DNA of 64,000 bases, from contig CAYVWQ010000002.1 of the NCBI GenBank assembly GCA_964455545.1, positions 138,596 through 202,595 of the forward strand, written 5' to 3'. The position numbers and the translations under genes are program-made. This DNA comes from an uncultured Thermoleophilaceae bacterium. Lineage in GTDB: Bacteria > Actinomycetota > Thermoleophilia > Solirubrobacterales > JACPNS01. This document shows, one piece after another, positions 12,945-41,455 of the stretch (positions are counted from its first letter, which is position 1; every line of letters begins with the position of its first letter). The notes under the pieces are model-generated. The model made no database searches. It saw only the letters and a program-made list of their open reading frames with translations, and had not been told where the DNA came from.

Positions 12945-13895
12945 CTAGCCGCGCTTGGCCAGCTGCTCGACGCGCCGCACGGCACGCCGCCAGACGCTCA
13001 GCAGCGAGCTCGCCCACTCCCGCTCCTCGACCTGCGCCTTGACGGGCAGGCGGTTCGCGGGGTACCACGAAAGTTCGGCCTCGAGTTCGGCGATCCGCGC
13101 CTCTGCGGCCGCCAGCTCTTCGCTCAGGTCGGCGGTCGGGGCCGGCTCGGACTCGCGCGCGGCGAGGTCTTCCTGCGCCAGCTCGAGGCGGTCTGAAAGC
13201 GCGGTGATCTGCTGGCGCTGAGCCTCGATCTGTGCGCTCTGCGAGGCGATCCGCTCTTCCTGGCTGATGATCAGCTCGCGCTGGGCCGAGCCGCTGGCGA
13301 CGGCGAGCTGCGGCGCGAGCTTCGGCATCGGCCCGTGTGCGGCGACGACGATGTGGAAGCGTTCTTCGCCGGGCCGGGCGGCCGCAAGTTTACGCACCGA
13401 GGACTGCACGGCGCGCGCCGGGTGATCGTGCTGAGCCATCGCCTCGCTGAACAGCGAGCTGGTCGTCCACTCCTGTTGAAAGAGCGTTGTCGCGTTGCCG
13501 AACCCGCGGACGAACGAGGCGCGGGCGTCGACAAAGTCGATGTCGTTGGGGAAGCGCGCGACGGCGAATCCGGTCTGCGGATTGACGACGCGCGAGAAGT
13601 CAGAGAGGTCGGCCGACGGGGTGGTGACGTCGATCACGGCGAAGTCGAAGTCGCCGTCGGCGACCACCTCGAGCTCGTTGAGCGGGCGCGAGGTGACGCG
13701 GGTCGCCGCCTCGCGAAGTGCGCCGACGCCGTCGTCGACGACGAGCGCGCTGCGGCCACGGGCGAGCTCGCAGGCGAGGGCGATGTAGACGACGCGCTCA
13801 GCGTCCTCGATTCCCCCTGGCGTAGTGCTTTGCGGCCGTTCGTCGAGTGCGACGGCGACGTGATCTCCCGTGAGTTCGGCCTCCACGACAGCCAC
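12945..13895 (-). CDS. Hypothetical protein: degenerate methyltransferase-like N-domain plus long C-terminal coiled coil
   Basis: ALVVDDGVGAL and FDFAVIDV resemble degraded SAM-MTase motifs. The C-terminal ~110 aa are heptad-like (QRELIISQEERIASQSAQIEAQRQQITALSDRLELAQEDL..AEARIAELEAEL). Start set at GTG 13895 (alternative GTG 13886), because the upstream part of the track ORF overlaps the cupin gene. Confidence 0.55.
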   Translation of the reverse strand: MAVVEAELTGDHVAVALDERPQSTTPGGIEDAERVVYIALACELARGRSALVVDDGVGALREAATRVTSRPLNELEVVADGDFDFAVIDVTTPSADLSDFSRVVNPQTGFAVARFPNDIDFVDARASFVRGFGNATTLFQQEWTTSSLFSEAMAQHDHPARAVQSSVRKLAAARPGEERFHIVVAAHGPMPKLAPQLAVASGSAQRELIISQEERIASQSAQIEAQRQQITALSDRLELAQEDLAARESEPAPTADLSEELAAAEARIAELEAELSWYPANRLPVKAQVEEREWASSLLSVWRRAVRRVEQLAKRG

Positions 13896-15677: not shown

Positions 15678-18545
15678 TCAGCCGCAGCCGGTGTTGTTGC
15701 CGCAGCTCGAGCAGGTGTAGCAAGAGCCGGTGCGCTGCATCATGCCTCCGCACTGCTGGCAGGCCGGGCCAAGCTCGATGCCGGACAGCTTCGCCGGGGC
15801 GGCAGTCGGCTGGTCGGGGACCAAGGCGTCGGCTGCCGGTTTGGCGGCCTCGACCTTCTTGATCTCAATCGCCGGGATCGCAGTGTCGCCGCGCAGCTCC
15901 ATGCCGGCCTCTTCGCCCATCTTCTTGGCGCGGACGGCCTCGGTCATGATGCCGAGCTCTTCCTGGATGTCCGCTTCGCAGTAACGCGAGGCGAGCCAGC
16001 GCATGATGTAGTCGGGCATCGACTTCGCGAACGGGATCTCCTTGTTCTGCGTCATGCCCTCGGGCTCGAAGCGCATGTAGGAGAACTTGTCGACGAAGGT
16101 CTCGATCGGCACGCCGTACTGGAGGCCGACGGAGATGGCCGTCGCGAACGCGTTCATCATGCCGCGCATCGTCGAGCCTTCCTTGCCGATGTCGGTGAGG
16201 AAGATCTCGCCGACGGTGCCGTCCTCGTACTCACCGGCGGTGATGTAACCCTCGTTGCCGGCGATCGAGAACTTGTGGGTGCGCGACTGGCGCTCGACCG
16301 GCATGCGGCGACGGTTCGGCTTGTTGCCTGCCTCGGCCGCGCCTTCGGCCTTGGCCGTCTCGAGTGCCTTCGCGAAGTCCTCTTCGCTCATCCGGACTTC
16401 GCCTTCAGCCGGCTCATCCTCCTGGGCGTCTGTGCGTAGGGCCTGCGCGGTCTTCGAGCCGTCGCGGTAGATCGCGAGCGCCTTCAGGCCGTACTCCCAG
16501 CCCTTGATGTAGGCGTCGGCGATGTCCTCGATCGTGGCCGTGTTCGGCATGTTCACGGTCTTGGAAATCGCGCCCGAGAGGAACGGCTGGGCCGCGGCCA
16601 TCATCTTGATGTGGCCCATGTGGCTGATCGCGCGCTCACCGACTGCGACGTCGAAGACGTCGAGGTCCTCGGCCTTGAGGCCCGGAGCGTCGACGATCGT
16701 GCCGTTCTCGGCGATGTACGCCTCGATCTGGTCGATCACGGCCTGGTCGTAGCCGAGCGTCTGCAGCGCCAGCGGCACCGTGCGGTTGACGATCGTCATG
16801 TTGCCGCCGCCGACGAGCTCCTTGAACTTGACCAGCGAGAAGTCCGGCTCGATACCGGTCGTGTCGCAGTCCATCAGGAAGGAGATCGTGCCGGTCGGGG
16901 CGAGCACCGTGGCCTGCGCGTTGCGGTAGCCGTGCTGGGCGCCGAACTCGACCGCCTCGTCCCAAGAGCGACGCGCGGCTGCGAGCAGCTCGCCGTCCTC
17001 GAGGGCGTCCGCCGGGATCTCGTAGGCAGCGTCGCGGTGCATGCGCATCACGTTCATCTGCGGCTCGGCGTTCTCCGGGTACTTCTCGTGGACGCCGATC
17101 GCCTCGGCGATCAGTGCCGACTGGCGGTACGCGCGGCCGGTCATCAGAGCGGTGATCGCGGCGGCGTCGGCGCGACCGCGGTCCGAGTCGTAGGGAAGGC
17201 CGTTGCTCATCAGCAGGGCGCCGAGGTTGGCGTAGCCGAGGCCGAGCTGGCGGAACGCGCGCGCGTTGTCGCCGATCTTCTCGGTCGGGTAGCTCGACGG
17301 GCCGACGACGATCTCCTGCGCGAGGAGGACGATGTCGATCGCGTGCTCGTACTGCGCCGTGTCGAAGCTGCCGTCCGGGCGACGGAACTTCATCAGGTTG
17401 AGCGAAGCGAGGTTGCAGGCCGAGTCATCGACGTGCATGTACTCGGAGCACGGGTTGGACGCGTTGATGCGGCCGCTGTTGGGCGACGTGTGCCAACGGT
17501 TGATGATCGTGTCGTACTGGATGCCGGGGTCGGCGCAGCGCCAGGCGGCCTCGGCGATCTCGGCCATCAGCTCGCGCGCGTCCATCTCTTCGACGACCGT
17601 GCCGTCGACGCGCGAGACCGTCGCCCAGGTGTCACCGGCGGCGACCGCCTGCATGAACTCATCGGAGACGCGCACCGAGTTGTTGGCGTTCTGGTACTGG
17701 ATCGAGGTGAAGCCGTCGCCGTCGATCGACATGTCGAACCCGGCGTCGCGCAGGGCCGCGGCCTTGTCTTCTTCCTTGGCCTTGCACCAGATGAAGTCGC
17801 GGATGTCCGGGTGGTCGACGTCGAGCACGACCATCTTCGCCGCACGGCGCGTCTTGCCGCCGGACTTGATCGTGCCGGCCCACGCGTCGGTGCCGCGCAT
17901 GAAGGAGACCGGGCCGGAGGCGGTGCCGCCCTTGCCGAGGTGCTCCATCGAGCCGCGGATGTTCGAGAGGTTGATGCCCGAGCCGGAGCCGCCGCGGAAG
18001 ATCTGGCCTTCCTGCGTGTTCCAGTCGAGGATCGACTCCATCGTGTCCTGCACGGAGAGGATGAAGCAGGCCGAGCACTGCGGGCGCTCTTCAAAACCGA
18101 CGTTGAACCAGACGGGAGAGTTGAAGGCGGCGACCTGGTGGAGGAGGATGTGGGTCAGCTCGTCTTCGAAAGCGTTGCCGTCTTCGTCGCTGGCGAAGTA
18201 GCCCAGCTCACGGCCCCAGTTACTGATCGTGCCGGCGACGCGGCCGATCATCTGCTTGACGGAGTTCTCACGCTGGTCGGTGCCCAGCTGTCCGCGGAAG
18301 TACTTCTGCGAAACGATGTTGGTGGCGTTCTGGCTCCAGGACTTCGGGAACTCGACGCCGCGCTGCTCGAACGCGGGCTTCTCGGGATTGCCGATCACCG
18401 CGTCGCGGATCTCCCATTCGATCGCGTCGAACGGGTGGACGCCGGCTTCTGTGTAGCGGCGGTTGATCTTCAGGCCCTGGCCGTGGCCTTCAAGCGTGAA
18501 GCCTGCAGCTGGCGCTGCGCCTGTGAGAACTTCCGGTGGGTTCAT
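15678..18545 (-). CDS. nrdJ: Class II (adenosylcobalamin-dependent) ribonucleoside-diphosphate/triphosphate reductase
   Basis: 955 aa. Motifs: NATNIVSQKYFRG, the active-site region ASNPCSEYMHVDDSACNLASLNL, and a C-terminal Cys cluster CQQCGGMMQRTGSCYTCSSCG. A strong SD (GGAGGAGGAGAGG) precedes the ATG. Confidence 0.9.
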   Translation of the reverse strand: MNPPEVLTGAAPAAGFTLEGHGQGLKINRRYTEAGVHPFDAIEWEIRDAVIGNPEKPAFEQRGVEFPKSWSQNATNIVSQKYFRGQLGTDQRENSVKQMIGRVAGTISNWGRELGYFASDEDGNAFEDELTHILLHQVAAFNSPVWFNVGFEERPQCSACFILSVQDTMESILDWNTQEGQIFRGGSGSGINLSNIRGSMEHLGKGGTASGPVSFMRGTDAWAGTIKSGGKTRRAAKMVVLDVDHPDIRDFIWCKAKEEDKAAALRDAGFDMSIDGDGFTSIQYQNANNSVRVSDEFMQAVAAGDTWATVSRVDGTVVEEMDARELMAEIAEAAWRCADPGIQYDTIINRWHTSPNSGRINASNPCSEYMHVDDSACNLASLNLMKFRRPDGSFDTAQYEHAIDIVLLAQEIVVGPSSYPTEKIGDNARAFRQLGLGYANLGALLMSNGLPYDSDRGRADAAAITALMTGRAYRQSALIAEAIGVHEKYPENAEPQMNVMRMHRDAAYEIPADALEDGELLAAARRSWDEAVEFGAQHGYRNAQATVLAPTGTISFLMDCDTTGIEPDFSLVKFKELVGGGNMTIVNRTVPLALQTLGYDQAVIDQIEAYIAENGTIVDAPGLKAEDLDVFDVAVGERAISHMGHIKMMAAAQPFLSGAISKTVNMPNTATIEDIADAYIKGWEYGLKALAIYRDGSKTAQALRTDAQEDEPAEGEVRMSEEDFAKALETAKAEGAAEAGNKPNRRRMPVERQSRTHKFSIAGNEGYITAGEYEDGTVGEIFLTDIGKEGSTMRGMMNAFATAISVGLQYGVPIETFVDKFSYMRFEPEGMTQNKEIPFAKSMPDYIMRWLASRYCEADIQEELGIMTEAVRAKKMGEEAGMELRGDTAIPAIEIKKVEAAKPAADALVPDQPTAAPAKLSGIELGPACQQCGGMMQRTGSCYTCSSCGNNTGCG

Positions 18546-18710
18546 CTTCCTCTCCTCCTCCTATGCCGTTGAAACGGCTGAGTGCGGCGGCCTTGCCTCG
18601 TCTGGGCTCCGCCGCAAAACAAATTGCATACTGGGAACACCCGCCGGACCGCCTGCGCTTCGCTCGAAGAACAAGGCGCTGAAGCCCTGTTTTTCGCCAT
18701 TTTGCGAAGT

Positions 18711-18736
18711 GAGTTACCGCCCTTAGGGGGTAACTC
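18711..18736. promoter_or_regulatory. Near-perfect 26-nt palindrome/hairpin in the nrdJ upstream region
   Basis: GAGTTACC gCCCttaGGGg GGTAACTC, about 165-190 nt upstream of the nrdJ ATG. Confidence 0.35.
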
Positions 18737-18952
18737 GACAAACAATCACTTGGCTCGGACGGAAACTCTTGGGAGGAACCGCCAGACCCGCCGAGAATCC
18801 CATCTGGTTCTCAACACATTTTAGGCCGTAAGCCCGCTCTGGGAGCCGGTTTCAGCCTGCAAAAGACGCTATTTGCGGGGGGCGGAGCCGAACCGGAAAA
18901 CTCGCGATTTGCGAAGTCCCACGCGCCAAAATCGACCAATTTCCGGCTCAAG

Positions 18953-19107
18953 CCGCTCCTCCTCGCGAAATCCTGAGGAGCAACCGCTACTCCTCACGAA
19001 ATCCCTAAGAGCAACCGCTCCTCCTCGCGAAATCCTGAGGAGCAACCGCGCCTCCTCCGGAAAACGCGAGGAGCGACGGCTCTTCCTCACGAAATCCTGA
19101 GGAAGCC
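18953..19107. repeat. Five head-to-tail 31-bp tandem repeats, each with an internal CTCCTC/GAGGAG inverted repeat
   Basis: Units start at 18953, 18984, 19015, 19046 and 19077. Units 1 and 3 are identical (CCGCTCCTCCTCGCGAAATCCTGAGGAGCAA). A 31-bp period is not a multiple of 3. The array is intergenic, 50 nt upstream of ATG 19158. Confidence 0.9.
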
Positions 19108-19157
19108 CAGGTTGCGGGGCGGCGGAATGCGGGATCGGGTGGCGAATCACGTTTCTG

Positions 19158-23208: not shown

Positions 23209-26200
23209 ATGCGACGCGCTCTCGGCGGCCTCGCATGCGCGGGGAAGCCTGCGTACGCGTGCTCAAACAACATTTTCCTCCTCCGCGGACACTCGGCTCG
23301 ACTGGCTCTGGCGATCCTGATCGCGGCTTTCACCACGTGTCTGATCGCAGGGTCGGCCGGTGCCGCCGTCTTCCAGGACAACGGCAGCCGGGACGACTCG
23401 GCGTTCGCCGGATTCGGTCAGGTCTACACGGAAGGGACCGACGGCATCGGCAAGTACGTCTGGGTCGTCGACCACCGCGACGGTGAGGACGTGCTGCGTG
23501 GCTTCGACCAGTCGAACCCGGCGCTGTCGACCCAGACGGGCATCCTCAACGGAAATGAAGACGTCGGTCCGGGACCGATCAGCTCGATCTCCGCGGCGGC
23601 TTTTTCGCCGCTCCACAGCCTTCTTTTTGTCGCCGACGACGGAGACGATCGCCTGATCGCGTATCCGCGCTCGAACACGATGCCGTGGGCGCCGATCGAC
23701 TACATGAACGCGATCGAGATATCGAGCTTCTCGCCGGTGTCGTTCCCGGTCGACAACCCGCGCGGGTTGGCGATCGACCCGCGCGGCTCTGAGAGGGGCT
23801 ACATGTCGTTGACCAACGAGAGCGGTTACCGCGGAATTCTTCAGTTCGCGACTGCGCCGAACGGCTCTTCCTTCTCGTGGATCCGGTTCACGTACATACC
23901 CGGAGCATGGGGCGGCGCAAATGGGCCGGGAGCGATGACGGTCGATCCGTCGAACGGAAACGTCTACGTGGCGATGGACGGCCTGAACCAGATTCAGGGA
24001 TACACCCCGGACATCGACAACGTCGCCGGCACGTTCCACTCGAGTACGTTGGGCGACTACGTCGGCGTCAGCGTCGACCGGCCGGGCAACCGTCTGTTTG
24101 GGGTCAAGACCGATTCGGTGGATGTCTTCGACCTGACGACTGCGAAGCTGCTCGGAACCCTTTGGGACAACGAGTTTGAACAGAACACCGGCTTCGCAGG
24201 GCTGCCGGGCACAACGAACTACTTCCTCGCCAGTGACGAGGCGCCGCACGTGAGAAACCTCGTGACCGGCAGCGCGCCGACCTGCACGCCCGGCCCGGCG
24301 GTCCAGGTCACCTACCAGTCAAGCAAGGAAATCACGCCCGACTGCACCGATCCCGACGGCTCGACGATCAGGCAGTTCTCGATCGTGAGTCCGCCCGCGC
24401 GGGGCACCGCAACGCCGACCAGCGGCGGCCAGTCGATCGGATACACCGCCGGAGCGGAGCAGCTCGGCGCCGACCAGCTGAGCTACACGGTCACCACGCA
24501 GGACGGCATCAGCGCGACGTACACCCAGGACATCGAGATCGTCGAACCGGACACGACGCCGCCGACGGTGACGATCACCTCTCCGAGCGACGGACTGCTG
24601 ACCACGGTCGGCGAGACGACGGTCCACTACACCGTCGCCGACGACCGGGACGAGACACCTGAATGCGACGTCGAGGATGGCGCGACGGCCGGCCTCGAGG
24701 TTGGCGCCACAACGCTCTCAGTGAGTTGCACCGACGACGCCGGCAACACCGGCTCGGATTCCGTGACGGTTTACTTCGACGCTTCGCCGCCGACGGTCGA
24801 GATCACCTGGCCGTGGTTCGACGGATGGGTCGTCAACTGGGACACGGTCGAAATTGAATACAGCGTCAACGATGACGTCGACAACTCCCCCGAGTGCGAC
24901 TACCCGAGCGGCGCCAGCTTCCCGATCGAGCACGGTTCGAACACCTTCACGATCAGCTGCACGGACGACGCCGGTCGGACCGGCACCGACTCGGTGACCC
25001 TGATCGGGGACCAGTCACCGCCGGAGATAACCGTGACTTCGCCGGCTGACGGAGCGGCCGTGACCGCCTCGACGCTTTACGTGGATTACGTCGTTTCCGA
25101 CGATCTCGCGACCGAGCCGTACTGCGCGGTCTACAACGACACCACCTATGACGGAGGCGAAGGCGAAGGTGAGGGACCGCCGACCGACGCTCACGAGGTT
25201 GAGCTGGTCCCTGGACTTAACGAGATCGCGGTCTACTGCAGCGACGACGCCGGCAACTCGTCGGAGGTGCCATTCGACGTCTTCTACGACACTGATGACC
25301 CGACCGTCTCAATCACCGCACCGACCGAAGGCGCACTCGTCACGACGTCGAGCATCCCGGTCGCCTTCACCGCGACCGACGACACCGATACCTCGCCGTC
25401 CTGCAACATCACCAGCGGCCAGTCGGTATCGCTGACGCCCGGTGCCAACACGATCACGGTCACCTGCACCGACGACGCCGGCCGCTCGGGCAGCGCCAGC
25501 GTTCACGTCACCTACGACGCCACCGCGCCGACCGTCTCAATCACCGCACCGACCGAAGGCGCACTCGTCACCACGCCGAGCATCCCGGTCACCTTCACGG
25601 CGACCGACGACACCGACGCCTCGCCCTCCTGCGATCTCACCAGCGGCCAGTCAGTATCGCTGACGCCCGGCGCCAACACGATCACCGTCACCTGCACCGA
25701 CGACGGCGGCCGTTCGGGCAGCGCGAGCGTTCACGTCACCTACGACGCGACGGCGCCGGAGGTGGAGATCACAGCTCCGGCGGACGGCTCGCTGGTCACC
25801 GCGCCGGCGGTCGACCTGACCTTCACCGTTTCCGACGACACCGACTCGGAGCCGACCTGCGACCACGCCGCCTCAAGCACCGCGAACCTCAGCCCCGGCC
25901 CGAACACGATCACCGTGACTTGCACCGACGCGGCCGGCCGGACCGGCAGCGACTCGGTCGACGTCGTCTACGACGCGTCCGCCCCGACGGTCGAGATCAC
26001 TGCACCCACAGACGGCCTGCTCGTCACCGACCCCGAGATCGCGGTCGACTACTCGGTCTCGGACGACGGAGAGGTCGCGCCCGACTGCGACATCGCTCCG
26101 GGATCCCTGGTCACGCTCTCCCCGGGTGAGAACACGATCACGGTCACCTGCACTGACTCGGCCGGCCACGCCGGTTCCGCATCGACTCACGTCACCTACG

Positions 26201-27087
26201 ACGCGGCGCCACCGGACGTGGCGATCACGTCGGTTGAGAACGGCGCGACCGTCTCATCCAACACGGCCGTCATCACCTACGAAGTCAGCGATGACGCCGA
26301 CTCCGCTCCGACCTGCACGCCCGCCAGCGGCACGGTCGTGTCGCTCCAGGAAGGCGCCAACGTCATCACGGTCACCTGCACCGACGCCAGCGGTCGCACG
26401 ACCGCCCGCTCGGTGACGCTCAACTACTCGCCGACGGTGACGACGCTCGCGGCCCCGTTCGTCCGCGAAACGACCAACCTCGTCCCGACCTCCGGCAGCG
26501 TGAAGATCAAGCTCCCCGGCTCCGACGAGTTCATCTCGATCAGCGAGGCCGTCTCGGTCCCGGTCGGGACGATCATCGACGCGCGTGAGGGCACCGCTCA
26601 GATCACGCTCGCAAACGCCGACGGTTCGACCTACACCGCCAAGTTCTGGGACGGCGTTTTCCAGGTCTTCCAGGGCGCGGGCAACGACCCTTACGCGATC
26701 ATCAAGCTTCGCAATGACCTCGCCGGTGGTTCCGCCAGCTCGAGTTCGTACGGCCCGTCTGCCAAGTCCGGATCGACCGACGCCCAGATCGCACGCCGCC
26801 GCAAGCGCAACGGCGTCTGGGGTGACGGCAAGGGCAAATTCCGCACCAGCGGCAGCGGTGGCTCGGCGAGTGTGCGCGGAACGCGCTGGTACGTCGCCGA
26901 CTACACCGACGGCACGCTCTTCAAGGTCGCGCGCGGCGAGGTGCTCGTCCGGCCGACCCACGGCGAGTGCTTCATCCTCAAGGCTGGCCAGCAGAAGTTC
27001 ATCAAGTACAAGCCTTTGACGGCCAAGCAGAAGGCCAGATTGAAGAAGCGCAAGAAGAAGACCACAAAGAAGACTTGTGACCTCTAG
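23209..27087 (+). CDS. Giant secreted protein: beta-propeller (NHL-like) + Ig-like domain + 8 x ~76-aa Cys-pair Ig-like repeats + FecR-like C-terminal module + Lys-rich tail
   Basis: Signal-like region LALAILIAAFTTCLIAGSAGAA. Propeller motifs NPRGLAIDPRG and GNVYVAMDGLNQIQGY. Repeats of the form PTVxITxPxDGxxV..DDxDxxPxC..GxNTITVTCTDxAGxxGS. The C-terminal module is VKIKLPGSDEFISISEAVSVPVGTIIDAREGTAQITL..SASVRGTRWYVADYTDGT. Start ATG 23209 is uncertain. Confidence 0.8.
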   Translation: MRRALGGLACAGKPAYACSNNIFLLRGHSARLALAILIAAFTTCLIAGSAGAAVFQDNGSRDDSAFAGFGQVYTEGTDGIGKYVWVVDHRDGEDVLRGFDQSNPALSTQTGILNGNEDVGPGPISSISAAAFSPLHSLLFVADDGDDRLIAYPRSNTMPWAPIDYMNAIEISSFSPVSFPVDNPRGLAIDPRGSERGYMSLTNESGYRGILQFATAPNGSSFSWIRFTYIPGAWGGANGPGAMTVDPSNGNVYVAMDGLNQIQGYTPDIDNVAGTFHSSTLGDYVGVSVDRPGNRLFGVKTDSVDVFDLTTAKLLGTLWDNEFEQNTGFAGLPGTTNYFLASDEAPHVRNLVTGSAPTCTPGPAVQVTYQSSKEITPDCTDPDGSTIRQFSIVSPPARGTATPTSGGQSIGYTAGAEQLGADQLSYTVTTQDGISATYTQDIEIVEPDTTPPTVTITSPSDGLLTTVGETTVHYTVADDRDETPECDVEDGATAGLEVGATTLSVSCTDDAGNTGSDSVTVYFDASPPTVEITWPWFDGWVVNWDTVEIEYSVNDDVDNSPECDYPSGASFPIEHGSNTFTISCTDDAGRTGTDSVTLIGDQSPPEITVTSPADGAAVTASTLYVDYVVSDDLATEPYCAVYNDTTYDGGEGEGEGPPTDAHEVELVPGLNEIAVYCSDDAGNSSEVPFDVFYDTDDPTVSITAPTEGALVTTSSIPVAFTATDDTDTSPSCNITSGQSVSLTPGANTITVTCTDDAGRSGSASVHVTYDATAPTVSITAPTEGALVTTPSIPVTFTATDDTDASPSCDLTSGQSVSLTPGANTITVTCTDDGGRSGSASVHVTYDATAPEVEITAPADGSLVTAPAVDLTFTVSDDTDSEPTCDHAASSTANLSPGPNTITVTCTDAAGRTGSDSVDVVYDASAPTVEITAPTDGLLVTDPEIAVDYSVSDDGEVAPDCDIAPGSLVTLSPGENTITVTCTDSAGHAGSASTHVTYDAAPPDVAITSVENGATVSSNTAVITYEVSDDADSAPTCTPASGTVVSLQEGANVITVTCTDASGRTTARSVTLNYSPTVTTLAAPFVRETTNLVPTSGSVKIKLPGSDEFISISEAVSVPVGTIIDAREGTAQITLANADGSTYTAKFWDGVFQVFQGAGNDPYAIIKLRNDLAGGSASSSSYGPSAKSGSTDAQIARRRKRNGVWGDGKGKFRTSGSGGSASVRGTRWYVADYTDGTLFKVARGEVLVRPTHGECFILKAGQQKFIKYKPLTAKQKARLKKRKKKTTKKTCDL
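25300..25755 (+). repeat. Two adjacent 228-bp coding repeat units about 90 percent identical at DNA level
   Basis: Units 25300-25527 and 25528-25755 both begin CCGACCGTCTCAATCACCGCACCGACCGAAGGCGCACTCGTCAC. I count roughly 19 mismatches in 228 by eye. Confidence 0.85.
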
Positions 27088-27189
27088 CGCCGGCAGAAAG
27101 CGCTTTGTCCCGCTGGACAAGCTCACATGCGGGATTTGAGGGCGGCGTACAAGCGCCCTTGTATACAGACCCATACCCTTGAGTGCACG

Positions 27190-29133
27190 ATGCGTTGCTC
27201 GGATCGGCCCGCCGCGCGCGAACTCGGACGCGCGCTCCTCTTCACCTGCATCGCGATTGGCTTGCTGCTGGTCGCTTCGCCGCGGGCCGCGCATGCCGAG
27301 GGTTTCGCCCCGTTGGATCCCTACGACGCGAACGGGGACACCTTCATCGGCAGCTTCGTCGGCCCCGTCACGGTCGAAGCGCCGGGCAATGGGGGCGAGT
27401 ACGCCTGGTACGCGGGTTACTCATCCGGCGAGTACGTGTTCAACGGTTTCACGCCCGGCGGCGGGGAAGAGGACCCGCCGGCCTCGTTCCCCGGCGGCAC
27501 CACGGCCGGAACAATCCCAAGCGTCAGTGGGACCGTCGTCGACAACCTCTTCACCGCGTCGCCGTGGATGTTCATCAGCGTTCCGACTCAGAACCGAGTG
27601 CTCGCCTACGAGCGCGTGTACCCGAGCGCCGGTCTCGGCGTCGATCAGTCGTCGGTGAAGCAGATTCCCGGTCCGGCCGCGCCGGGAGACGCCGGAGCCG
27701 GGAGCGGTGATGGTCAGTTCAACCAGCCGCGTGGGCTGGCGATCGGCCCCGAGGGGTTGGCGACCGATCTGTACGTGGCGGACTGGGGGAACCAGCGGAT
27801 TCAGGTCTTTGACAGCACGACGCTTGCGTACAAGCGCCAGATCGACAACCCCGGCTGGAGTGACTACCCGGTTGATCCGCTGGCGGTCGACAACTCCACC
27901 GGCGAGCTGTACGCCGGTGCTCCGGGAGTGTCTTCGATTGACGTCTTCGATGCCGGCGCGCAGAATCAGATCGACACGATCTTCACGAACGGCACGATCC
28001 ACACGATGACGATCGACCAGAACGCCCACCTGCTCTACGTCGGAACGGCCGGTTCGCCGAGCTCGATCGAGGTCTTCTCGTTGCCCGACCGCACCCCGCT
28101 CGGAACGTTCCAGCTCCCGGATGAAGACTCTGACCCCGCCGCCGAGTTTGCGTTCATCGATTCGCTCAGCTTCGAGCCGAGCACCCGCACGCTCTACACG
28201 ACGCTTCAGAACGGCAGCCTGTACGTCGCCAAGCCCTACGCGATGCAGCAGCTGTACTGCGATGACCCGGCGCCCGTCACGGTCGCTCCCGGCGATTCGA
28301 TCACTGTGGAGCTGACCGGTTGTCAACGCAGCACGTCACCGCGTCAGTACCGCGTCACGCAGCAGCCGACCAACGGCACCGCGACCGTCGAACAGTCGCC
28401 GGACCAGATCACCTACACCGCCTCGCCGAGCGCGACCGGCCAGGACAGTTTCAAGTTCCTCGCCGTAGACCGCTACGGCGGGATGGCCGAGAAGACGCTC
28501 GTGATCAACCCCGATCCGCCCGCACAGCCCGTCACTCCTCCGCCTCCGGCGAACCCGCCGACCTACAAGGAAGACGCCAACCTCTCGCGCTCGACCGGCA
28601 CGATTCTCGTCAAGCTGCCCGGCAGCGATCAGTACGTGAGCGTCGCCAGCACGGCAGCAGTGCCGATCGGAACGATCGTCGACGCGCGCGACGGCGTCGC
28701 CTTCATCACCTGGGCTCGGCCCGACGGCACGACCTACAGCGGGCAGTTCTCGGGCGGGATCTTTGAGATCAAGCAGGACAAGGGCAAGGACCCGTACGCG
28801 GTTGTGAAACTGCGCACGGACCTGGTGGCCGGGGCCTCGGCTGCACGTGCATTGATGTCCGCGGCCGACTCGGTCGACGCCTACATCGCGCGCAAGAAGG
28901 GCAAGCGCCGCAATCGTGTGTGGGGCAACGCAAAGGGCAAGTTCCGCACCGAGGGCAGCAACTCCTCGGCGAGCGTTCGCGGCACCAACTGGCTCGTCGA
29001 GGACTACGCCAACGGCACGCGCACCTATGTGAAGACAGGTGTGGTCGTTGTGAAGCCGTACAAGAAGCGGAAGACCAAGGGCCAGAAGACGAAGACGCTG
29101 AAGAAGGGCCAGAGCTACTTCGTATGGCGTTGA
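27190..29133 (+). CDS. Secreted NHL-repeat beta-propeller protein with Ig-like domain and FecR-like C-terminal module (paralogue of the end of the upstream gene)
   Basis: Signal LLFTCIAIGLLLVASPRAAHA. NHL motif GDGQFNQPRGLAIGPEG..LYVADWGNQRIQVFD. C-terminal module ILVKLPGSDQYVSVASTAAVPIGTIVDARDGVAFITW..SASVRGTNWLVEDYANGT. Confidence 0.8.
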   Translation: MRCSDRPAARELGRALLFTCIAIGLLLVASPRAAHAEGFAPLDPYDANGDTFIGSFVGPVTVEAPGNGGEYAWYAGYSSGEYVFNGFTPGGGEEDPPASFPGGTTAGTIPSVSGTVVDNLFTASPWMFISVPTQNRVLAYERVYPSAGLGVDQSSVKQIPGPAAPGDAGAGSGDGQFNQPRGLAIGPEGLATDLYVADWGNQRIQVFDSTTLAYKRQIDNPGWSDYPVDPLAVDNSTGELYAGAPGVSSIDVFDAGAQNQIDTIFTNGTIHTMTIDQNAHLLYVGTAGSPSSIEVFSLPDRTPLGTFQLPDEDSDPAAEFAFIDSLSFEPSTRTLYTTLQNGSLYVAKPYAMQQLYCDDPAPVTVAPGDSITVELTGCQRSTSPRQYRVTQQPTNGTATVEQSPDQITYTASPSATGQDSFKFLAVDRYGGMAEKTLVINPDPPAQPVTPPPPANPPTYKEDANLSRSTGTILVKLPGSDQYVSVASTAAVPIGTIVDARDGVAFITWARPDGTTYSGQFSGGIFEIKQDKGKDPYAVVKLRTDLVAGASAARALMSAADSVDAYIARKKGKRRNRVWGNAKGKFRTEGSNSSASVRGTNWLVEDYANGTRTYVKTGVVVVKPYKKRKTKGQKTKTLKKGQSYFVWR

Positions 29134-30998
29134 TGACCAAACGCAGGCTTTCGGCGTTGACGCTCGTCGGGCTGCTGTTGACCGGCTTCGCACTGCTCGC
29201 GTACGCATTCGGCTCGCTGACTTCGCTCGAGAACTCGAGCGTGGACAAGCGGTTCGAATGGCGCGGGACGAAGAGCACAGCGCAGACCCGCGACATCGTG
29301 ATGGTGAAGATCGACGACAAGTCGTTTTCTGAACTCAACACGACTTTCCCGTTCCCGCGCGGCCTCCACGCGCAGATGGTCGATGACCTGAAGAAGGACG
29401 GCGCGAAGCTGATCCTCTACGACGTGCAGTTCACCGAGCCGAGCGATGATCCCGATCAGGACGACGATCTGATCTACGCGGTCCAAGATGCCGGCAACGT
29501 AGTGCTCGTCACCTCCGAGACCTATGTCAAGAAGGGCAAGACCCGCACGAAAGTCTTCGGTGGGGACGATGTCGTGAAGGAGGCGCGCGCGACCGTCGGG
29601 AACTCGGTCGTCCCGAATGACACAGGAAACGTGGTTCGGTCCTTGTACTACGAGTTCGGGGGGCTGCAGAGCGCACCCGTCGCTGTCGCGCGACGACTTG
29701 GGAGGACCGTCGAGCGCTCGGAGTTCAACGAGAATGGCCGGGCGCTTGTCAATTTCGCCGGCCCCCCAAGCACCATCCCGTCCGTTTCCTTCAGCAGCGT
29801 TATTGACGGCAAAGTCGACCCGAAGTTCTTTAAGGACAAGATCGTCATTGTCGGAGCTTTCGCCGTGACATTGCAGGACTTCCATAGAACCCCGACGAGT
29901 GGGGAAAGCAGGATGCCCGGGCCGGAGCTCCTGGCCAACTCGATCGGCACGATCCTCGACGACTTCCCGCTACGAAACGCCCCGGCCTGGCTCGACGTCC
30001 TGCTGATCATCCTGCTCGGAATGACCACCCCGCTCGCCTCGCTCAAGTTCAATCCTCGTGGCGCCTTCATCGCGGCCCTCACCACGGCGTTCTTCTTCAC
30101 GGTCTTCACCTACATGGCCTTCAACAACGGCCTGATCTGGGTCTACGTCTATCCGATGCTCGCGCTGACGCTGACGACGATCGCCGCGCTCGGTGTCAAC
30201 TACCTCGCCGCCTCGTACGACCGGCAGCTCGTGCGCGGGGAGTTCGCGCGGTTTGCGCCCGACAGCGTCGTCGATCAGATCCTCGAGAACGCGGACGGCG
30301 AGGCCACGCGTCTCGGCGGCAAACGCCTGACGGCGACGCTGCTCTTCTCAGACCTTCGCGGCTTCACCAGCTTCAGTGAAAAGATGACTCCCGAGCAGGT
30401 GATCGCGATCCTCAACGACTACCTGACCGAGATGAGCGACGCGATCATGGACCACGGCGGCACGCTCGTGTCCTACATGGGCGACGGAATCATGGCGGTG
30501 TTCGGCGCCCCGATCGCGAGCGAGGATCACGCCGACCGTGGCCTTGCGGCCGCTCGCGAGATGCTCGAGCGACTCGGCCACTTCAATGCGCGGCTCGCAC
30601 GCGACCACGGAATCGACAAGCACTTCAAGATGGGCATCGGTCTCAACACCGGACCCGTCATGAGCGGAAACGTCGGATCCGAACGACGCATGGAGTACAC
30701 GGCGATCGGCGACACGACCAACACTGCCGCGCGGCTGGAAGCGCTGACCAAGGGCAGCGGCTACCAGCTGTTCCTCTCCGAGTCGACGAAGATGGCGCTG
30801 CACGAGGTGCACGACGACATCAAGTTCGTGCGCACGATGGAGGTGCGCGGGCGCGAGCAGGGCGTGAACGTGTGGGGTCTCGACGAGCCGCACTCCGACG
30901 ACGAAGGCGAACACTTTGAGTCGGTCAGCCAGTCGCCGATGGAGACTGTCGTGGCCGTCGAGACTGCGCCCGAGGCGATCGAGACGCCGACCGACTAG
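29124..30998 (+). CDS. CHASE2 extracytoplasmic sensor + TM segments + class III adenylate/guanylate cyclase
   Basis: An N-terminal TM helix is followed by a CHASE2-like region (IVMVKIDDKSFSELNTTFPFPRGLHAQMVDDL..VLYDVQF), four hydrophobic segments, and the cyclase core LLFSDLRGFTSFSE..GDGIMAVFGAP..IGLNTGPVMSGNVGS..YTAIGDTTNTAARLE. The start (ATG 29124 or 29133) overlaps the stop of the upstream gene. Confidence 0.85.
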   Translation: MALMTKRRLSALTLVGLLLTGFALLAYAFGSLTSLENSSVDKRFEWRGTKSTAQTRDIVMVKIDDKSFSELNTTFPFPRGLHAQMVDDLKKDGAKLILYDVQFTEPSDDPDQDDDLIYAVQDAGNVVLVTSETYVKKGKTRTKVFGGDDVVKEARATVGNSVVPNDTGNVVRSLYYEFGGLQSAPVAVARRLGRTVERSEFNENGRALVNFAGPPSTIPSVSFSSVIDGKVDPKFFKDKIVIVGAFAVTLQDFHRTPTSGESRMPGPELLANSIGTILDDFPLRNAPAWLDVLLIILLGMTTPLASLKFNPRGAFIAALTTAFFFTVFTYMAFNNGLIWVYVYPMLALTLTTIAALGVNYLAASYDRQLVRGEFARFAPDSVVDQILENADGEATRLGGKRLTATLLFSDLRGFTSFSEKMTPEQVIAILNDYLTEMSDAIMDHGGTLVSYMGDGIMAVFGAPIASEDHADRGLAAAREMLERLGHFNARLARDHGIDKHFKMGIGLNTGPVMSGNVGSERRMEYTAIGDTTNTAARLEALTKGSGYQLFLSESTKMALHEVHDDIKFVRTMEVRGREQGVNVWGLDEPHSDDEGEHFESVSQSPMETVVAVETAPEAIETPTD

Positions 30999-31963
30999 CC
31001 GTCGGAAGCGAACGCGAGCACCAGCGGAAGCGGGTGCTCCCCGTACTGCACGGCGCGCACGACGTCGGTCCAAACCGCGTCCGAGAACTTCCGGCCCAGG
31101 CGGTCATCGCGTTCGATCAGCTCCCACGCCCGTGGCCAAGGCACTATGAGCACGACGGTGTCCTCGCGCGCGCGGCTCTCCACGGCCGTCGAGTCCATGT
31201 CACCGCCGAGAAAGCCGATCACTCCAACGCCGCGGCCGGGGCCGGAGAGGCGCATGCGGCGCGCCCGGTCCTTGCCGCGGATTGATGTCTCGACGGCGCC
31301 TCGCAGCACGATGCCGAAGGCGTGAGGCGCCTGGCTCGATGACCACAGCACCGCGCCGCGGGGAACGAAGACGGTGTCCAGTCCCTCGGTGAACTCCTCG
31401 ATCTCGGCCGTCGTGAACGCCTCGAAGAAGAGTGTCGTCTGGATGTACTCCGCGGCCTCGGGCTCGCGCAGCTCGAACTGGTCGACGTCGATCGGCGCCG
31501 GCTCGCCGTCTCCGCCGACGGTCTCGCGGAGCGCTTTGTAGAGCGCGTGAAGACGCTCGACGGCCTGCCTGCCGATCCGCTCGACGATCCTCGCGCTGGC
31601 GTGGCGCGTGTCGTTGCGCAGCACGTCGAAGGCGGCGCGATCGAGTGACCAGACGACCGTGTCTTCAAGCGCGACCAGCGTCGCACCCCGCACGCCGTCA
31701 CCGAGCAGTGCGAGCTCACCGATCGTGTCGCCCGGCTCGACGTCGATCAGCTTGCGCCGTTTGCCGTTGGCGATCGCGAGGTTTGAACTCATCAGACCGC
31801 TCTCGACGATCATCATGCTCGAGCCGGGCGCGTCCTGTTCGAACACTGTCTCGCCGGCGGCATACTCCTCGCGCTGCATCAACCGACCGATGTCGACGAG
31901 CGTTTCCTCGTCGAGGTCGCCGAAGAGCTTGCTTGCACGCAAGGCGTTGGCTGCGTCGGTCAC
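30995..31963 (-). CDS. Tandem cyclic-nucleotide-binding (CAP-effector-like) domain protein without recognisable output domain
   Basis: First domain: LFGDLDEETL..GDTIGELALLGDGVRGATLVALEDTVV. The second domain is more divergent. There is a 4-nt overlap with the upstream GATase gene, and the 3' end overlaps the cyclase stop. Confidence 0.75.
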   Translation of the reverse strand: MTDAANALRASKLFGDLDEETLVDIGRLMQREEYAAGETVFEQDAPGSSMMIVESGLMSSNLAIANGKRRKLIDVEPGDTIGELALLGDGVRGATLVALEDTVVWSLDRAAFDVLRNDTRHASARIVERIGRQAVERLHALYKALRETVGGDGEPAPIDVDQFELREPEAAEYIQTTLFFEAFTTAEIEEFTEGLDTVFVPRGAVLWSSSQAPHAFGIVLRGAVETSIRGKDRARRMRLSGPGRGVGVIGFLGGDMDSTAVESRAREDTVVLIVPWPRAWELIERDDRLGRKFSDAVWTDVVRAVQYGEHPLPLVLAFASDG

Positions 31964-32889
31964 AGGTTCAGCTCCCGTAGTTCGAGCGTGACGCCCTCGT
32001 CGCCGCGCTCTAGCACAATCATCGAGTACTCCGGCACTTCCATCCAGTTCAGCGGCTCACCCCCGATCGGCTCAGAGGCCACGATCGCCGCGCCGAAACG
32101 CAGCTCGTCGTTGTACTGCATCGCCCATTCACCGGAAGAATTGTCGAAGCTGCGCCCGAGCGCGCACCACAGCGTCGTGTAGTCGAACTGGCGCTCGCCG
32201 GCGAAGAACGACTCGTCGTCCGGATACCAGCCGTAGTCAAAACAGAAGCGTGTCGCGACCAGCGAGTCGCCGTCGCTGGCGACGATGTTGACCGGCGACT
32301 GGGTGCGCAGGTCGAGCTCATCGCGGACCTCGCGGATCGTGCGGATCGCGCCGGCGACGGCGTCGGCCAGTTGCGCAGCGGACGCCTTGCCCCACGGGTT
32401 CTCGAGTTGGCTGAGCACCGTCGCATAGACCCACTCGGTGTCCGTCGAGCCCTCGACGTGACGGATGATCTCGGCGGGAAGCCGGTCGGCCAGCGCATGC
32501 TTCATCTTCCCGAAGTCGTAGAGGTCGCCGTTCTGCGCGAGGATCACCTGCGCGCCGGGGAAGCGGAACGGGTGGAGGTTCTGCGGGCCGACGACCTCGG
32601 ACGGGTCGTAGACCACGCCGCGCACGTGGCTGAGCGCGGCCGTGGCCTGGACCTTCTCCGTCAGCGACTTGAGGTTGCGATCAAAGACCGGGACGTTCGG
32701 CGTCTTGTAGTAGTACGGCCGCGACGGGTCGGGGGAGGAATCGTTCCAGGCGGCCAGGCCGAAGCCGCCGATGTTCAGCAGCGACATCAGCCGCGCACTG
32801 ACCGACTGGTTGACGAGTGAGTTGTCGGCCTCAAACAGCGGGCCGTCGAGCAGGACGGGCTCGCCGAGGTATCCGAAGACGCGGCACAC
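31960..32889 (-). CDS. Class II (Ntn) glutamine amidotransferase-like protein (YafJ/EgtC-like)
   Basis: The N-terminal MCRVFGYLG supplies a Cys2 nucleophile. Also present: GFGLAAW and HVRGV..NLHPF. Confidence 0.7.
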   Translation of the reverse strand: MCRVFGYLGEPVLLDGPLFEADNSLVNQSVSARLMSLLNIGGFGLAAWNDSSPDPSRPYYYKTPNVPVFDRNLKSLTEKVQATAALSHVRGVVYDPSEVVGPQNLHPFRFPGAQVILAQNGDLYDFGKMKHALADRLPAEIIRHVEGSTDTEWVYATVLSQLENPWGKASAAQLADAVAGAIRTIREVRDELDLRTQSPVNIVASDGDSLVATRFCFDYGWYPDDESFFAGERQFDYTTLWCALGRSFDNSSGEWAMQYNDELRFGAAIVASEPIGGEPLNWMEVPEYSMIVLERGDEGVTLELRELNL

Positions 32890-40478: not shown

Positions 40479-40551
40479 GCCGACGTAGCTCAGTTGGTAG
40501 AGCACTTCACTCGTAATGAAGGGGTCCCCGGTTCGAATCCGGGCGTCGGCT
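40479..40551 (+). tRNA. tRNA-Thr (anticodon CGT)
   Basis: Hand-folded cloverleaf: acceptor GCCGACG/CGTCGGC, D arm GCTC-AGTTGGTA-GAGC, anticodon arm CTTCA-CTCGTAA-TGAAG, T arm CCCGG-TTCGAAT-CCGGG. 73 nt. CCA is not encoded. Confidence 0.9.
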
Positions 40552-40579
40552 TCAAGCTAGTTCCCGGCCTCCCGCTCGA

Positions 40580-41455
40580 ATGCGACCAACCGAACTCGCA
40601 AGTCAGCTTGGAATCTCACCAAAGTCGTTGCGTGCGTGGTTGCGCGCGACGTTCCCGCGGACATCCGATGAACATGGGTCTGAATGGGTTCTGACGCAGG
40701 AACAGGTGGAGGCTGCCACCGACTACTGGCGACCGCGGGATAGTTCGAAGAGCGCAGCGCTTCGTTCACGGCGACACGGCTGGGTAGAAGATGAGGTCAT
40801 ATTGGCTCTCGAGCTGTATGTCCGCGAAGGCGTTGGAGCGTCTCCCGATTCGGTGAACAGACTCAGCTCGATTCTTCGGGGGCTGCCGATCGAAAAAGAG
40901 CTAGCGAAGGACGAGGCGTTTCGCAGTCCATCGAGCGTGAAGTTCAAGTTGGGAAACCTTGACTCAATCGCCTCAGGCGGCGCCTCAGGGTTTGCAAACG
41001 CAAGCATGCTTGATCGAGAGATTTGGTTTGCCTACGCGGACGAGCGCGAGCAGCTCGAGATAGATGCCATTTCGATTCTCGAGAACATTGAGGAGGCTGG
41101 TGAGGTCGGCCAGTTGGAGCTCGAAGAAGAGCCGCCAATAGAGGGCCGCATCGTCGCCGCCGTGCACAAGAGGAGAGAAAGAGACTCCCGCCTGCGAAGG
41201 CGGAAGATCCAGGCCGCCGAAACACTCGCCTGCGAAGCCTGCGGCTTTGATTTTGAGGACTCTTACGGTGAAAGGGGCGCCGGCTTCGTTGAATGTCACC
41301 ACCTGGTTCCACTCGCGGAACTCGGAGCGAGCGGTCGTCGTACTTCGTTGGACGACCTTGCGTTGCTTTGTGCCAATTGCCATCGAATGATTCATCGAGA
41401 GCGCCCCTGGCTAACCCTGCCTGAGCTCAGGGCGTCGATAAATCGGCGCATCTAG
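40580..41455 (+). CDS. HNH nuclease of the predicted restriction-endonuclease type (COG3183-like)
   Basis: C-terminal HNH/zinc motif CEACGFDFEDSYGERGAGFVECHHLVPLAE..LLCANCHRMIH. The middle region WVEDEVILALELY..FRSPSSVKFKLGNL is typical of this group. Confidence 0.75.
   Translation: MRPTELASQLGISPKSLRAWLRATFPRTSDEHGSEWVLTQEQVEAATDYWRPRDSSKSAALRSRRHGWVEDEVILALELYVREGVGASPDSVNRLSSILRGLPIEKELAKDEAFRSPSSVKFKLGNLDSIASGGASGFANASMLDREIWFAYADEREQLEIDAISILENIEEAGEVGQLELEEEPPIEGRIVAAVHKRRERDSRLRRRKIQAAETLACEACGFDFEDSYGERGAGFVECHHLVPLAELGASGRRTSLDDLALLCANCHRMIHRERPWLTLPELRASINRRI

Follow-up and report, generated by a model that had tools for sequence, protein, structure and literature searches.

A window of 64,000 nucleotides of DNA from an uncultured soil actinobacterium of the order Solirubrobacterales carries three consecutive forward-strand genes, here termed A, B and C, whose layout identifies them as one predicted operon. 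Gene A (23209..27087, + strand) is an open reading frame (ORF) of 1292 amino acids encoding a signal peptide, a propeller-like region, a Big_9 domain, Ig-like repeats, a C-terminal module and a tail, and gene B (27190..29133, + strand) is an ORF of 647 amino acids encoding a signal peptide, a beta-propeller, a Big_9 domain and a basic FecR-like module; public gene callers agree on the ends of both (P0009, P0011; L002). Gene C (29124..30998, + strand) encodes a CHASE2-TM-class III cyclase of 624 amino acids when read from the ATG at 29124, with an alternative ATG at 29133. The start of C overlaps the end of B at a junction that reads ...GTATGGCGTTGATGACC, where the TGA of B occupies 29131-29133 and both candidate ATG codons of C (29124 and 29133) are found, as the initial annotation of this DNA had described. 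A promoter and terminator scan, otherwise uninformative, revealed no terminator-like site between A, B and C, and an Rfam search returned one tRNA and nothing else.

The products of A and B each have one N-terminal hydrophobic segment of the signal-peptide type and no further TM segment. In B, a beta-propeller at approximately residues 55-352, with an NHL repeat scoring 26.1 bits against a Pfam cut-off of 20 (E = 8e-6), precedes a Big_9 Ig domain at residues 362-441 (Pfam, E = 7e-7). AF2 models B as an all-beta protein (pLDDT 82), for which Foldseek ranks 1l0q, a surface-layer protein combining a tandem YVTN propeller with PKD, first among PDB structures (E = 8e-12), with further matches to the propellers 1rwi and Pizza6. 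No NHL repeat was matched in A by the Pfam search, and a propeller is predicted there solely because its first approximately 450 amino acids are paralogous to those of B (24% identity, E = 6e-7). Protein A shares the Big_9 Ig domain (Pfam) and adds eight tandem Ig-like repeats of approximately 76 amino acids (24553..26433, + strand; repeat listing and Pfam), each bracketed by two Cys (...PxCD...[ST]C[TS]D...), in a region matching Glucodextran_B (5.5e-25), Big_7 and Big_13; these eight repeats could serve as a stalk. The net charge of A is -117 outside the C-terminal module versus +19 within it. The two ORFs with signal-like N-termini, the propeller repeats and the Cys-bracketed Ig-like domains reported in the initial annotation were all borne out, the propeller of A by paralogy alone.

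Both proteins end in the same module, located at 26464..27006 in A (+ strand; family Hidden Markov Model (HMM) 7e-62) and at 28567..29130 in B (+ strand; family HMM 6e-56). The two copies are 47% identical over 188 amino acids (E = 6e-48), a sequence likeness that is far beyond chance and that upholds the paralogy noted before us. A Lys/Arg-rich tail had been described after each module; such a tail follows the module of A (27007-27084, + strand), whereas the K-rich stretch of B was located inside the last hairpin of the module. The B module has a K/R-rich internal loop. The modules are strongly basic, with net charges of +19 (A) and +20 (B).

Pfam and NCBIfam lack a model for the module, and a profile search of PDB sequences with it returned nothing meaningful. 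The Pfam FecR model PF04773 scored 12.9 bits (E = 0.16) against the module of A, under the gathering threshold of 24 bits, and matched nothing in the module of B; across 33 family members, 14 matched FecR, all below threshold (best E = 0.0032), while no other family was matched by more than two. Weak matches to Lsa33 were also seen. Comparison of the module profile with Escherichia coli FecR by hhalign was not significant (E = 0.6-0.7). The AF2 model of the B module is confident (pLDDT 88, pTM 0.85), and its top four Foldseek matches in the PDB are the FecR-family periplasmic domains of PupR and BDI_1681, the PupR CCSSD (6ovk) and BDI_1681 (4m0h, 4m0n) being the only PDB matches with a Foldseek probability of 1.0. 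The predicted structure has the CJM-type twisted beta-solenoid fold. By this model and the recurrent sub-threshold matches, the module is nevertheless FecR-like. The initial annotation had used this label and had listed a lack of significant HMM hits among the findings that would refute its reading: the label is retained on the fold and on the matches in 14 of 33 members, and significance by HMM did not materialize. A Gly-Thr self-cleavage site is present in FecR and FoxR and absent from some FecR-domain members. Within the module, G139 is invariant and T140 at least 90% conserved (motif VRGTNW in B), and the best, non-significant hhalign alignment sets this Gly-Thr on FecR G181-T182, the self-cleavage site (PMC12036975).

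Protein C has hydrophobic segments at residues 8-33 and three more within residues 286-363, flanking a CHASE2 domain that is predicted to be extracytoplasmic, between TM1 and TM2-4 (29172..30038, + strand; clade HMM 2e-105). Pfam places CHASE2 at residues 22-300 (160.6 bits against a cut-off of 26.3, E = 6.8e-47) and also matches Guanylate_cyc PF00211 (91.3 bits against 21.9, E = 7.3e-26), in agreement with the architecture first proposed; the class III catalytic domain (30309..30878, + strand) was delimited by alignments to Cya2 (2w01) and CyaB (3r5g). Both metal-binding Asp residues, the transition-state Asn and the Arg are present in C, each position showing at most one exception among 120 homologs, and C is probably an active cyclase because all catalytic residues are kept. 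The substrate-specifying pair is Ser-Thr in place of Lys-Asp/Thr: in the motif LVSYMGDG, the Ser aligns with the Lys of Pseudomonas aeruginosa CyaB and the Glu of Synechocystis Cya2. Across the 120 homologs, the first position is Ala (93) or Ser (27) and the second is always Thr (120/120), so the earlier suspicion of a non-canonical Lys position in LVSYMGDGIM extends to the whole clade. Reference pairs are Lys-Asp/Thr for ATP and Glu-Cys/Ser/Gly for GTP (PMC6005667). The pair in C fits neither the adenylyl nor the guanylyl signature, and its nucleotide product therefore cannot be read from the sequence; we flag the clade as one for which product prediction of this kind does not hold. The CHASE2 ectodomain of C carries a mild negative charge (-5) and includes an acidic loop.

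Gene D (30995..31963, - strand; 322 amino acids) is convergent with C, their 3′ ends overlapping by 4 nucleotides, and encodes two cNMP-binding domains (Pfam cNMP_binding PF00027 in two stretches, 97.1 bits against 27.5, E = 5.9e-28) without an output domain, as originally described. Read by eye, its second domain apparently lacks the phosphate-binding Arg (GGDMDSTAV). D belongs to a separate minus-strand operon, its start overlapping the stop codon of the GATase-like gene at 31960-32889, and it adjoins the cyclase in one of four syntenic relatives (present in L005; absent from L006, L007 and L010). D is thus not a conserved partner of the cyclase; it may read the cyclase product, but at best locally and optionally.

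The module belongs to a large domain family, defined here, that has no model in either domain database: an exhaustive profile search recovered 6056 clusters at 50% identity. An impression of rarity, from a word-indexed search that gave only three relatives, was discarded. The module is nearly always C-terminal (median of two residues after it), has a median net charge of +25 and follows varied domains (SpaA_2, beta-helix, DUF11, Big, fn3 and NHL). One family member has a 'choice-of-anchor Q' domain, which fits a generic C-terminal anchor. Small 'module-only' proteins (P0048, P0053 and L001 4324-4812) were rejected as evidence for an autonomous function; since they lack signal peptides and start inside conserved sequence, they are apparently fragments or frameshift products.

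In Solirubrobacterales, all ten of the loci selected by their cyclase have one to three module genes directly upstream. These loci come from two unrelated genomic settings, their cyclases have either one or two CHASE2 domains, and the co-conservation check proposed in the initial annotation is passed strongly; a contig scan with a single cyclase protein as query had given no relatives. Genes in the linked loci are spaced by -10 to +20 nucleotides, an operon-like arrangement. Among 65 loci selected by the module, CHASE2 lies within 10 kb in 35 and directly downstream on the same strand in 29, a sample drawn with narrow patterns from alignment A1 and thus with a taxonomic picture biased towards Thermoleophilia. 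Module genes occur in tandem arrays of 1-14, one array holding 14; it is not easy to imagine so many proteins as co-receptors for one cyclase. About a third of the module-selected loci (approximately 20 of 65) contain a solitary module gene with unrelated neighbours (TPP enzyme, patatin, MFS transporter and amidase), which implies that the module needs no CHASE2 gene in cis. A divergent CHASE2 missed by the HMM beside these genes was ruled out, the neighbours being ordinary metabolic and transport genes. One module gene is also found near a CHASE2-HD protein, and the link thus appears to be to CHASE2, not to the cyclase domain. Systems of this kind are standard in the order, the present locus being a small example, and 'giant' and 'unusual architecture', as the initial annotation put it, were overstatements. 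As read from gene order, the linkage suggests that CHASE2 works with partner proteins.

The CHASE2 domain, described some two decades ago, is widespread in bacteria, where cyclases, kinases and c-di-GMP enzymes carry it. Neither its ligand nor its mechanism has been established (PMC5192318). In Proteobacteria and Campylobacterota, FecR-domain genes adjoin those of CHASE2 kinases and cyclases (PMC5192318, PMC9239204), an association to which the initial annotation had pointed and which is documented in several systems: a Burkholderia 'BiofilmReg' operon pairs a LysM-FecR protein with a CHASE2 histidine kinase, and a Campylobacterota cAMP cluster combines a CHASE2 cyclase with a FecR-domain protein, a TPR protein and a phosphodiesterase, the mechanism being unknown in both and in the S. 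meliloti pair cyaD1/smc02177 (PMC5192318, PMC9239204, PMC5498481). In the only tested FecR-CHASE2 cyclase case, Sinorhizobium meliloti SMc02177, a FecR-domain gene near cyaD1, is activated by cAMP-Clr and gives the same mutant phenotype as the cyclase, and it is dispensable for signal perception (PMC5498481). The S. meliloti CHASE2 cyclases receive their signal via another envelope protein, NsrA, the only prior mechanistic clue on CHASE2 (PMC13001267).

The locus is a variant of this known pairing, with which it shares an exported FecR-fold protein encoded beside a CHASE2 membrane protein and an output that can be a class III cyclase. It differs in that the module is too divergent for PF04773, spans about 175-185 amino acids with a K/R-rich insert and a charge of approximately +20, is appended to the C terminus of large, variable heads where the known partners are small stand-alone or LysM-linked proteins, and is found in 1-14 tandem copies. 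Solirubrobacter is a Gram-positive-type actinobacterium without an outer membrane; a host of this type offers no outer-membrane partner, unlike the known pairs. With the sigma regulators FecR, PupR and FoxR, the module has in common a twisted beta-solenoid-like fold (the CJM subdomain, equivalent to Pfam FecR; 6ovk, 4m0h and 4m0n), while sequence similarity is not significant. Unlike those Tat-inserted, bitopic regulators, A and B have Sec-type signal peptides and are devoid of a cytoplasmic anti-sigma domain, TM helix and STN subdomain, and neither ECF sigma factor nor TonB-dependent transducer genes were found in the flanks of the locus. For C, Synechocystis Cya2 has the same CHASE2-TM-class III architecture and the closest solved catalytic domain (2w01, E = 4e-39), a homodimeric class III enzyme with all catalytic residues, yet its Glu-Gly pair makes cGMP (PMC6005667), in contrast to the Ser/Ala-Thr of the present clade.

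We propose, with about even confidence for and against, that the module docks the secreted proteins A and B at CHASE2 and couples them to the cyclase that is their operon partner. A and B would be exported by Sec; their acidic propeller and Ig heads, to which A adds an eight-domain Ig stalk, may bind a ligand or surface. The basic beta-solenoid module would tether the secreted protein to the membrane surface, either on the CHASE2 domain or next to it, and the cytoplasmic class III domain would then have its activity set by how partner proteins bind, load or are lost. The anatomy of the three proteins, the fold of the module and the tight and widespread linkage of module genes to CHASE2 are the observations from which we infer a physical contact between module and CHASE2 and a flow of information that starts at A and B and reaches the cyclase. 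In favour of docking are the paralogous modules, the size of their family, the FecR-type fold, linkage seen from both sides, the module gene near a CHASE2-HD protein, the operon structure, the charge of the modules against that of the CHASE2 ectodomain of C (+19 and +20 versus -5), and the precedents of FecR-CHASE2 neighbours elsewhere and of the NsrA-relayed S. meliloti cyclases. Against it stand a FecR homology below every curated threshold, the solitary module genes, the arrays of up to 14 module genes, the 'choice-of-anchor Q' member and the dispensability of SMc02177 for perception.

Some of these same observations suit a generic envelope anchor, in which the module would be a non-covalent retention domain fixing its secreted carriers to the anionic polymers of the wall, or to the membrane, of a monoderm cell. 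CHASE2, unbound, would monitor or regulate the surface layer that these proteins build, for example envelope state or export load. Its extreme C-terminal position after many unrelated extracellular domains, its very high charge (median +25) opposite acidic heads (-117 in A), the anchor-type domain in one member, the scattering of solitary genes in the genome and the resemblance of the B head to an archaeal S-layer propeller-PKD protein would all be expected of such an anchor. It leaves unexplained, however, why a module gene lies directly upstream, with overlapping or nearly overlapping codons, in every sampled CHASE2 cyclase of the clade, and why CHASE2 repeatedly has this very fold as its neighbour in other phyla, and we consider it rather unlikely.

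A and B might alternatively be outputs, that is, effectors such as adhesins or surface enzymes placed under cyclic-nucleotide control within one regulon, as in S. meliloti. The adhesin-like or glycan-binding-like look of the heads favours this reading, as does SMc02177, activated by cAMP-Clr and not needed for perception (PMC5498481), which also weakens the original inference that A and B are sensory inputs. We nonetheless regard it as improbable: the module genes are upstream of the cyclase and translationally coupled to it, an arrangement usual for subunits of one complex and not for a regulator and its target, and none of the genes conserved at the locus encodes a cNMP-dependent transcription factor. 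Synteny inherited among close relatives could place these genes side by side with no functional tie, and the short-form loci (the window, L005-L007 and L010) do have housekeeping neighbours such as tmk, holB and nrdJ in common. This explanation is largely refuted, and we give it hardly any weight, since the pairing is kept in the entirely different contexts of the double-CHASE2 loci L008, L009 and L077-L079 and in Patulibacter, Thermoleophilaceae and Gaiellaceae, the module genes differing in number and type yet keeping their adjacency. For the DNA as first annotated, the observations are confirmed and the interpretation is partly supported.

Together with its relatives, the locus provides the cleanest genetic statement yet of CHASE2 with FecR-fold partners (10/10 cyclase-selected loci), and the system should be simpler here, there being no outer membrane in these organisms. 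The partner module is compact, confidently modelled and expressible alone, which makes CHASE2 binding and cyclase switching directly testable under the docking proposal. A bolder extension, which we offer tentatively and consider doubtful, is that CHASE2 is a receptor for FecR-fold proteins and not a small-molecule sensor, a dockerin-like module in Thermoleophilia plugging up to 14 different secreted binders into one single- or double-CHASE2 cyclase to build a combinatorial surface-sensing antenna, possibly with FecR-like Gly-Thr self-cleavage and with a cyclic nucleotide as the output of a cyclase clade whose Ser/Ala-Thr specificity pair would be new to characterisation. By analogy only, the cohesin-dockerin cellulosome likewise joins varied heads to one C-terminal module encoded in clusters with the gene of a membrane or surface scaffold; its folds are unrelated, and the putative scaffold here is a signalling enzyme where a cellulosome has a structural protein. 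Extracellular propellers, with Ig or PKD domains, also act as sensor or surface domains in Mycobacterium tuberculosis PknD (1rwi) and the archaeal S-layer protein 1l0q, although PknD joins propeller and signalling enzyme in one chain and here the propeller is carried on a separate secreted polypeptide.

The region, at ~65% G+C, holds three genes on one strand followed by one convergent gene: A and B, which encode the propeller/Ig proteins, C, the CHASE2 cyclase, and D, a tandem cNMP-binding protein. A (23209–27087, plus strand; 1,292 aa) has a single N-terminal hydrophobic segment of the signal-peptide type, and its N-terminal ~360 aa are paralogous to the propeller of B (24% identity, E = 6e-7). 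It further contains a Big_9 Ig domain recognized by Pfam and eight Ig-like repeats in tandem, each of ~76 aa with two Cys and matching Glucodextran_B, Big_7 or Big_13, and its C-terminal end is formed by a ~180-aa module followed by a K/R-rich tail. B (27190–29133, plus strand; 647 aa) combines a signal peptide, an NHL repeat exceeding the Pfam cut-off and a Big_9 domain with a C-terminal module that shares 47% identity with that of A across 188 aa (E = 6e-48). The AF2 model of full-length B (pLDDT 82) comprises a propeller region that is all-beta, an Ig domain and the module; its top PDB match is 1l0q (E = 8e-12), a tandem YVTN propeller–PKD fragment of an archaeal surface-layer protein, and the matches also include the sensor propeller of PknD. 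Both proteins (23209–29133) display a strong charge asymmetry, with acidic heads (net charge outside the module −117 in A and −28 in B) and basic C-terminal modules (+19 and +20, respectively). In essentially every detail, the sequence-level description in the initial annotation was borne out.

The A–B–C gene order is operon-like, with C (29124 or 29133 to 30998, plus strand) overlapping the end of B at the junction ...GTATGGCGTTGATGACC, and a scan found no terminator-like sites between the three genes. The product of C runs from a transmembrane (TM) segment through CHASE2 (E = 6.8e-47) and three further TM segments to a class III cyclase domain (E = 7.3e-26). D (30995–31963, minus strand) encodes two cNMP-binding domains and nothing else, and the 3′ ends of C and D share 4 nt. 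An overlap of the same length joins the start of D to the stop of an upstream class-II glutamine-amidotransferase-like gene, to which it is translationally coupled (the pair spans 30995–32889, minus strand); D thus lies in a different operon from A–B–C. Of four syntenic relatives, one alone has a cNMP-binding gene next to its cyclase. The pair of D and the amidotransferase-like gene is also kept in a close relative (locus L005), and the second cNMP domain of D, inspected by eye, lacks the phosphate-binding Arg.

The FecR label that the initial annotation had attached to the module was not recovered by direct Pfam search (E = 0.16 for the A module, no match for B), and no Pfam model covers the module. 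NCBIfam yielded only weak matches, to the Leptospira adhesin Lsa33, a FecR-type protein. A word-indexed search returned three relatives; when a profile was run exhaustively against 1.84 billion cluster representatives, 6,056 were recovered at E ≤ 1e-3 and 2,513 at E ≤ 1e-30. Among the best 150 matches, the module nearly always sits at the extreme C-terminus (median of 2 residues beyond it; fewer than 30 in 142 of 152 matches), preceded by very varied extracellular domains, among them SpaA_2, right-handed beta-helix, DUF11, Big, fn3, NHL/SGL propellers, PhoD_N, RCC1 and FG-GAP. The module family stands out as highly basic, its median net charge being +25 over 174 aa.

The AF2 model of the B module is confident (pLDDT 88, pTM 0.85) and describes an elongated, all-beta domain with a single disordered K/R-rich loop. 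Foldseek comparison with the PDB placed periplasmic domains of FecR-family regulators in the top four positions, as the sole matches of probability 1.0 (PupR, 6ovk; BDI_1681, 4m0h and 4m0n; E = 3e-3 to 2e-2, TM ~0.4). Sub-threshold matches to PF04773 were found in 14 of 33 module-only sequences (best E = 0.0032), every other family being matched by at most two of the 33. We conclude that the module belongs to the FecR-fold superfamily as a divergent member and that the libraries searched contain no model covering it. Within its VRG-T-x-W motif, the Gly is invariant and the Thr is kept in at least 90% of members; in the best hhalign alignment to Escherichia coli FecR, which is non-significant, this Gly-Thr falls on FecR G181-T182, the presumed site of self-cleavage by N–O acyl shift (PMC12036975). 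It is not a sigma regulator of the FecR type: the module proteins lack an anti-sigma domain, a TM helix and an STN subdomain, and neither an ECF sigma factor nor a TonB-dependent transducer is encoded nearby.

Homologs of the cyclase number in the thousands, those with names coming from Solirubrobacter and other Solirubrobacterales. Relatives at 45–61% identity on long contigs were sampled, and purpose-built HMMs for the module, CHASE2 and the cyclase domain were run over all six frames of their loci. The initial annotation had proposed A and B as sensory or ligand-presenting partners of the cyclase, and module and cyclase genes proved to be co-conserved: one to three module genes lie directly upstream on the same strand in all ten distinct cyclase-selected loci (the window, L005–L010 and L077–L079). 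Housekeeping synteny with the window is seen in five of the ten. The remaining five occupy unrelated contexts and encode ~960–980-aa cyclases with two tandem CHASE2 domains (about 9600–12900 in L008, L009, L077 and L079; 2225–5541 in L078), and in each of them a ~130-aa DUF3307 gene separates the proximal module gene from this long-form cyclase. In L077, the module–DUF3307 pair is duplicated.

Approached from the module side with one genome per species, 65 loci were obtained from Solirubrobacteraceae, Thermoleophilaceae, Patulibacter and Gaiellaceae, the exceptions being one record with the title Bifidobacterium breve and a few whose titles go no further than Actinomycetota or Actinomycetes. 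CHASE2 lies within 10 kb in 35 of them, 29 of these having it directly downstream on the same strand, and ~20 of the 65 are solitary with unrelated neighbours. Many loci carry tandem arrays of module genes; on CAVRFQ010000012.1 (1,062,765–1,095,562; L021, L038 and L037 combined), 14 such genes on one strand fill ~30 kb and end at a double-CHASE2 cyclase. In locus L039 (6876–10420), a CHASE2 protein whose output is HD (HD_5) in place of a cyclase has a module gene ~1.9 kb downstream, which suggests that the link is to CHASE2 and not to the cyclase domain.

Among the comparison loci, other Solirubrobacteraceae MAGs commonly carry arrays of five to nine module genes (L015, L017, L019, L024 and L025). 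L016, titled ‘MAG: Bifidobacterium breve’, is a typical Solirubrobacterales-type module, CHASE2 and cyclase locus, and the bin is probably mislabelled or contaminated. In the long-read metagenome locus L001 (12983–14969), the gene caller gives no more than a 372-aa cyclase plus an ORF on the minus strand, and the CHASE2 HMM detects a full domain on the plus strand (13025–13840), a discrepancy probably due to a frameshift or mis-call; split module or CHASE2 matches occur in several other MFD long-read MAG loci.

The nearest solved relative of the catalytic domain of C (30309–30878, plus strand) is that of Synechocystis Cya2 (2w01; E = 4e-39), a guanylyl cyclase that is likewise CHASE2-linked and has Glu-Gly as its specificity pair (PMC6005667). 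The Ser of LVSYMGDG in C aligns with Lys in CyaB or Glu in Cya2, and the Thr of EYTAIG with Thr or Gly, respectively. Across 120 homologs (P0154–P0273), the substrate-specifying Lys/Glu position holds Ala in 93 and Ser in 27, and the Asp/Cys specificity position is Thr in every one; the Ala/Ser-Thr pair characterizes the entire clade and did not arise as a mutation at this locus. The two metal-binding Asp are conserved, as are the Asn and the Arg, so C looks catalytically competent, with a specificity pair from which the nucleotide product cannot be read.

A and B are secreted modular proteins with a basic, FecR-fold C-terminal module, and the linkage of this module to CHASE2 is clade-wide. 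A functional link between module proteins and CHASE2 proteins is very likely; that their adjacency is mere coincidence is scarcely credible. We postulate that the module docks A and B on or beside the CHASE2 ectodomain, where the state of the docked proteins could control cyclase output, and we give even odds to contact between module and CHASE2 together with a flow of information into the latter. Docking is supported by the recurrence of this fold next to CHASE2 proteins elsewhere, namely in a LysM-FecR protein beside a CHASE2 kinase in Burkholderia (PMC5192318), a FecR-domain protein in the CHASE2 cyclase cluster of Campylobacterota (PMC9239204) and the CHASE2 cyclase/FecR-fold pair cyaD1/smc02177 of Sinorhizobium meliloti (PMC5498481), and by the triggering of S. 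meliloti CHASE2 cyclases via a partner envelope protein (PMC13001267).

Counting against docking are the solitary module genes and a ‘choice-of-anchor’ domain in one family member, and it is difficult to reconcile arrays of up to 14 module genes with co-receptor function. The module could instead be a generic anchor, a reading that we regard as unlikely, if not negligibly so. SMc02177 of S. meliloti, a downstream target dispensable for signal perception (PMC5498481), also speaks against docking. That A and B act purely as output seems improbable.

Pairing of FecR with CHASE2 is already on record, and taken singly the domain families are unremarkable. What appears new is the divergent basic module family, used as a C-terminal appendage of many kinds of secreted protein, together with its tandem gene arrays, the double-CHASE2 plus DUF3307 variant and the conserved Ser/Ala-Thr cyclase clade. 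The system opens the CHASE2 question to experiment.

Elsewhere in the window, a gene for a 955-aa ribonucleotide reductase of the B12-dependent type (15678–19157, minus strand) is preceded by a ~600-nt non-coding region in which no Rfam family was matched at the gathering threshold. At 40479–44855, a small islet for restriction-modification or defence adjoins a tRNA-Thr(CGT). This stretch after the tRNA is low in GC (0.59–0.61 versus ~0.65), and its genes specify an HNH endonuclease, a restriction endonuclease of the NaeI family (Pfam, 2e-104), a C5 cytosine methylase and a protein with a NERD domain.
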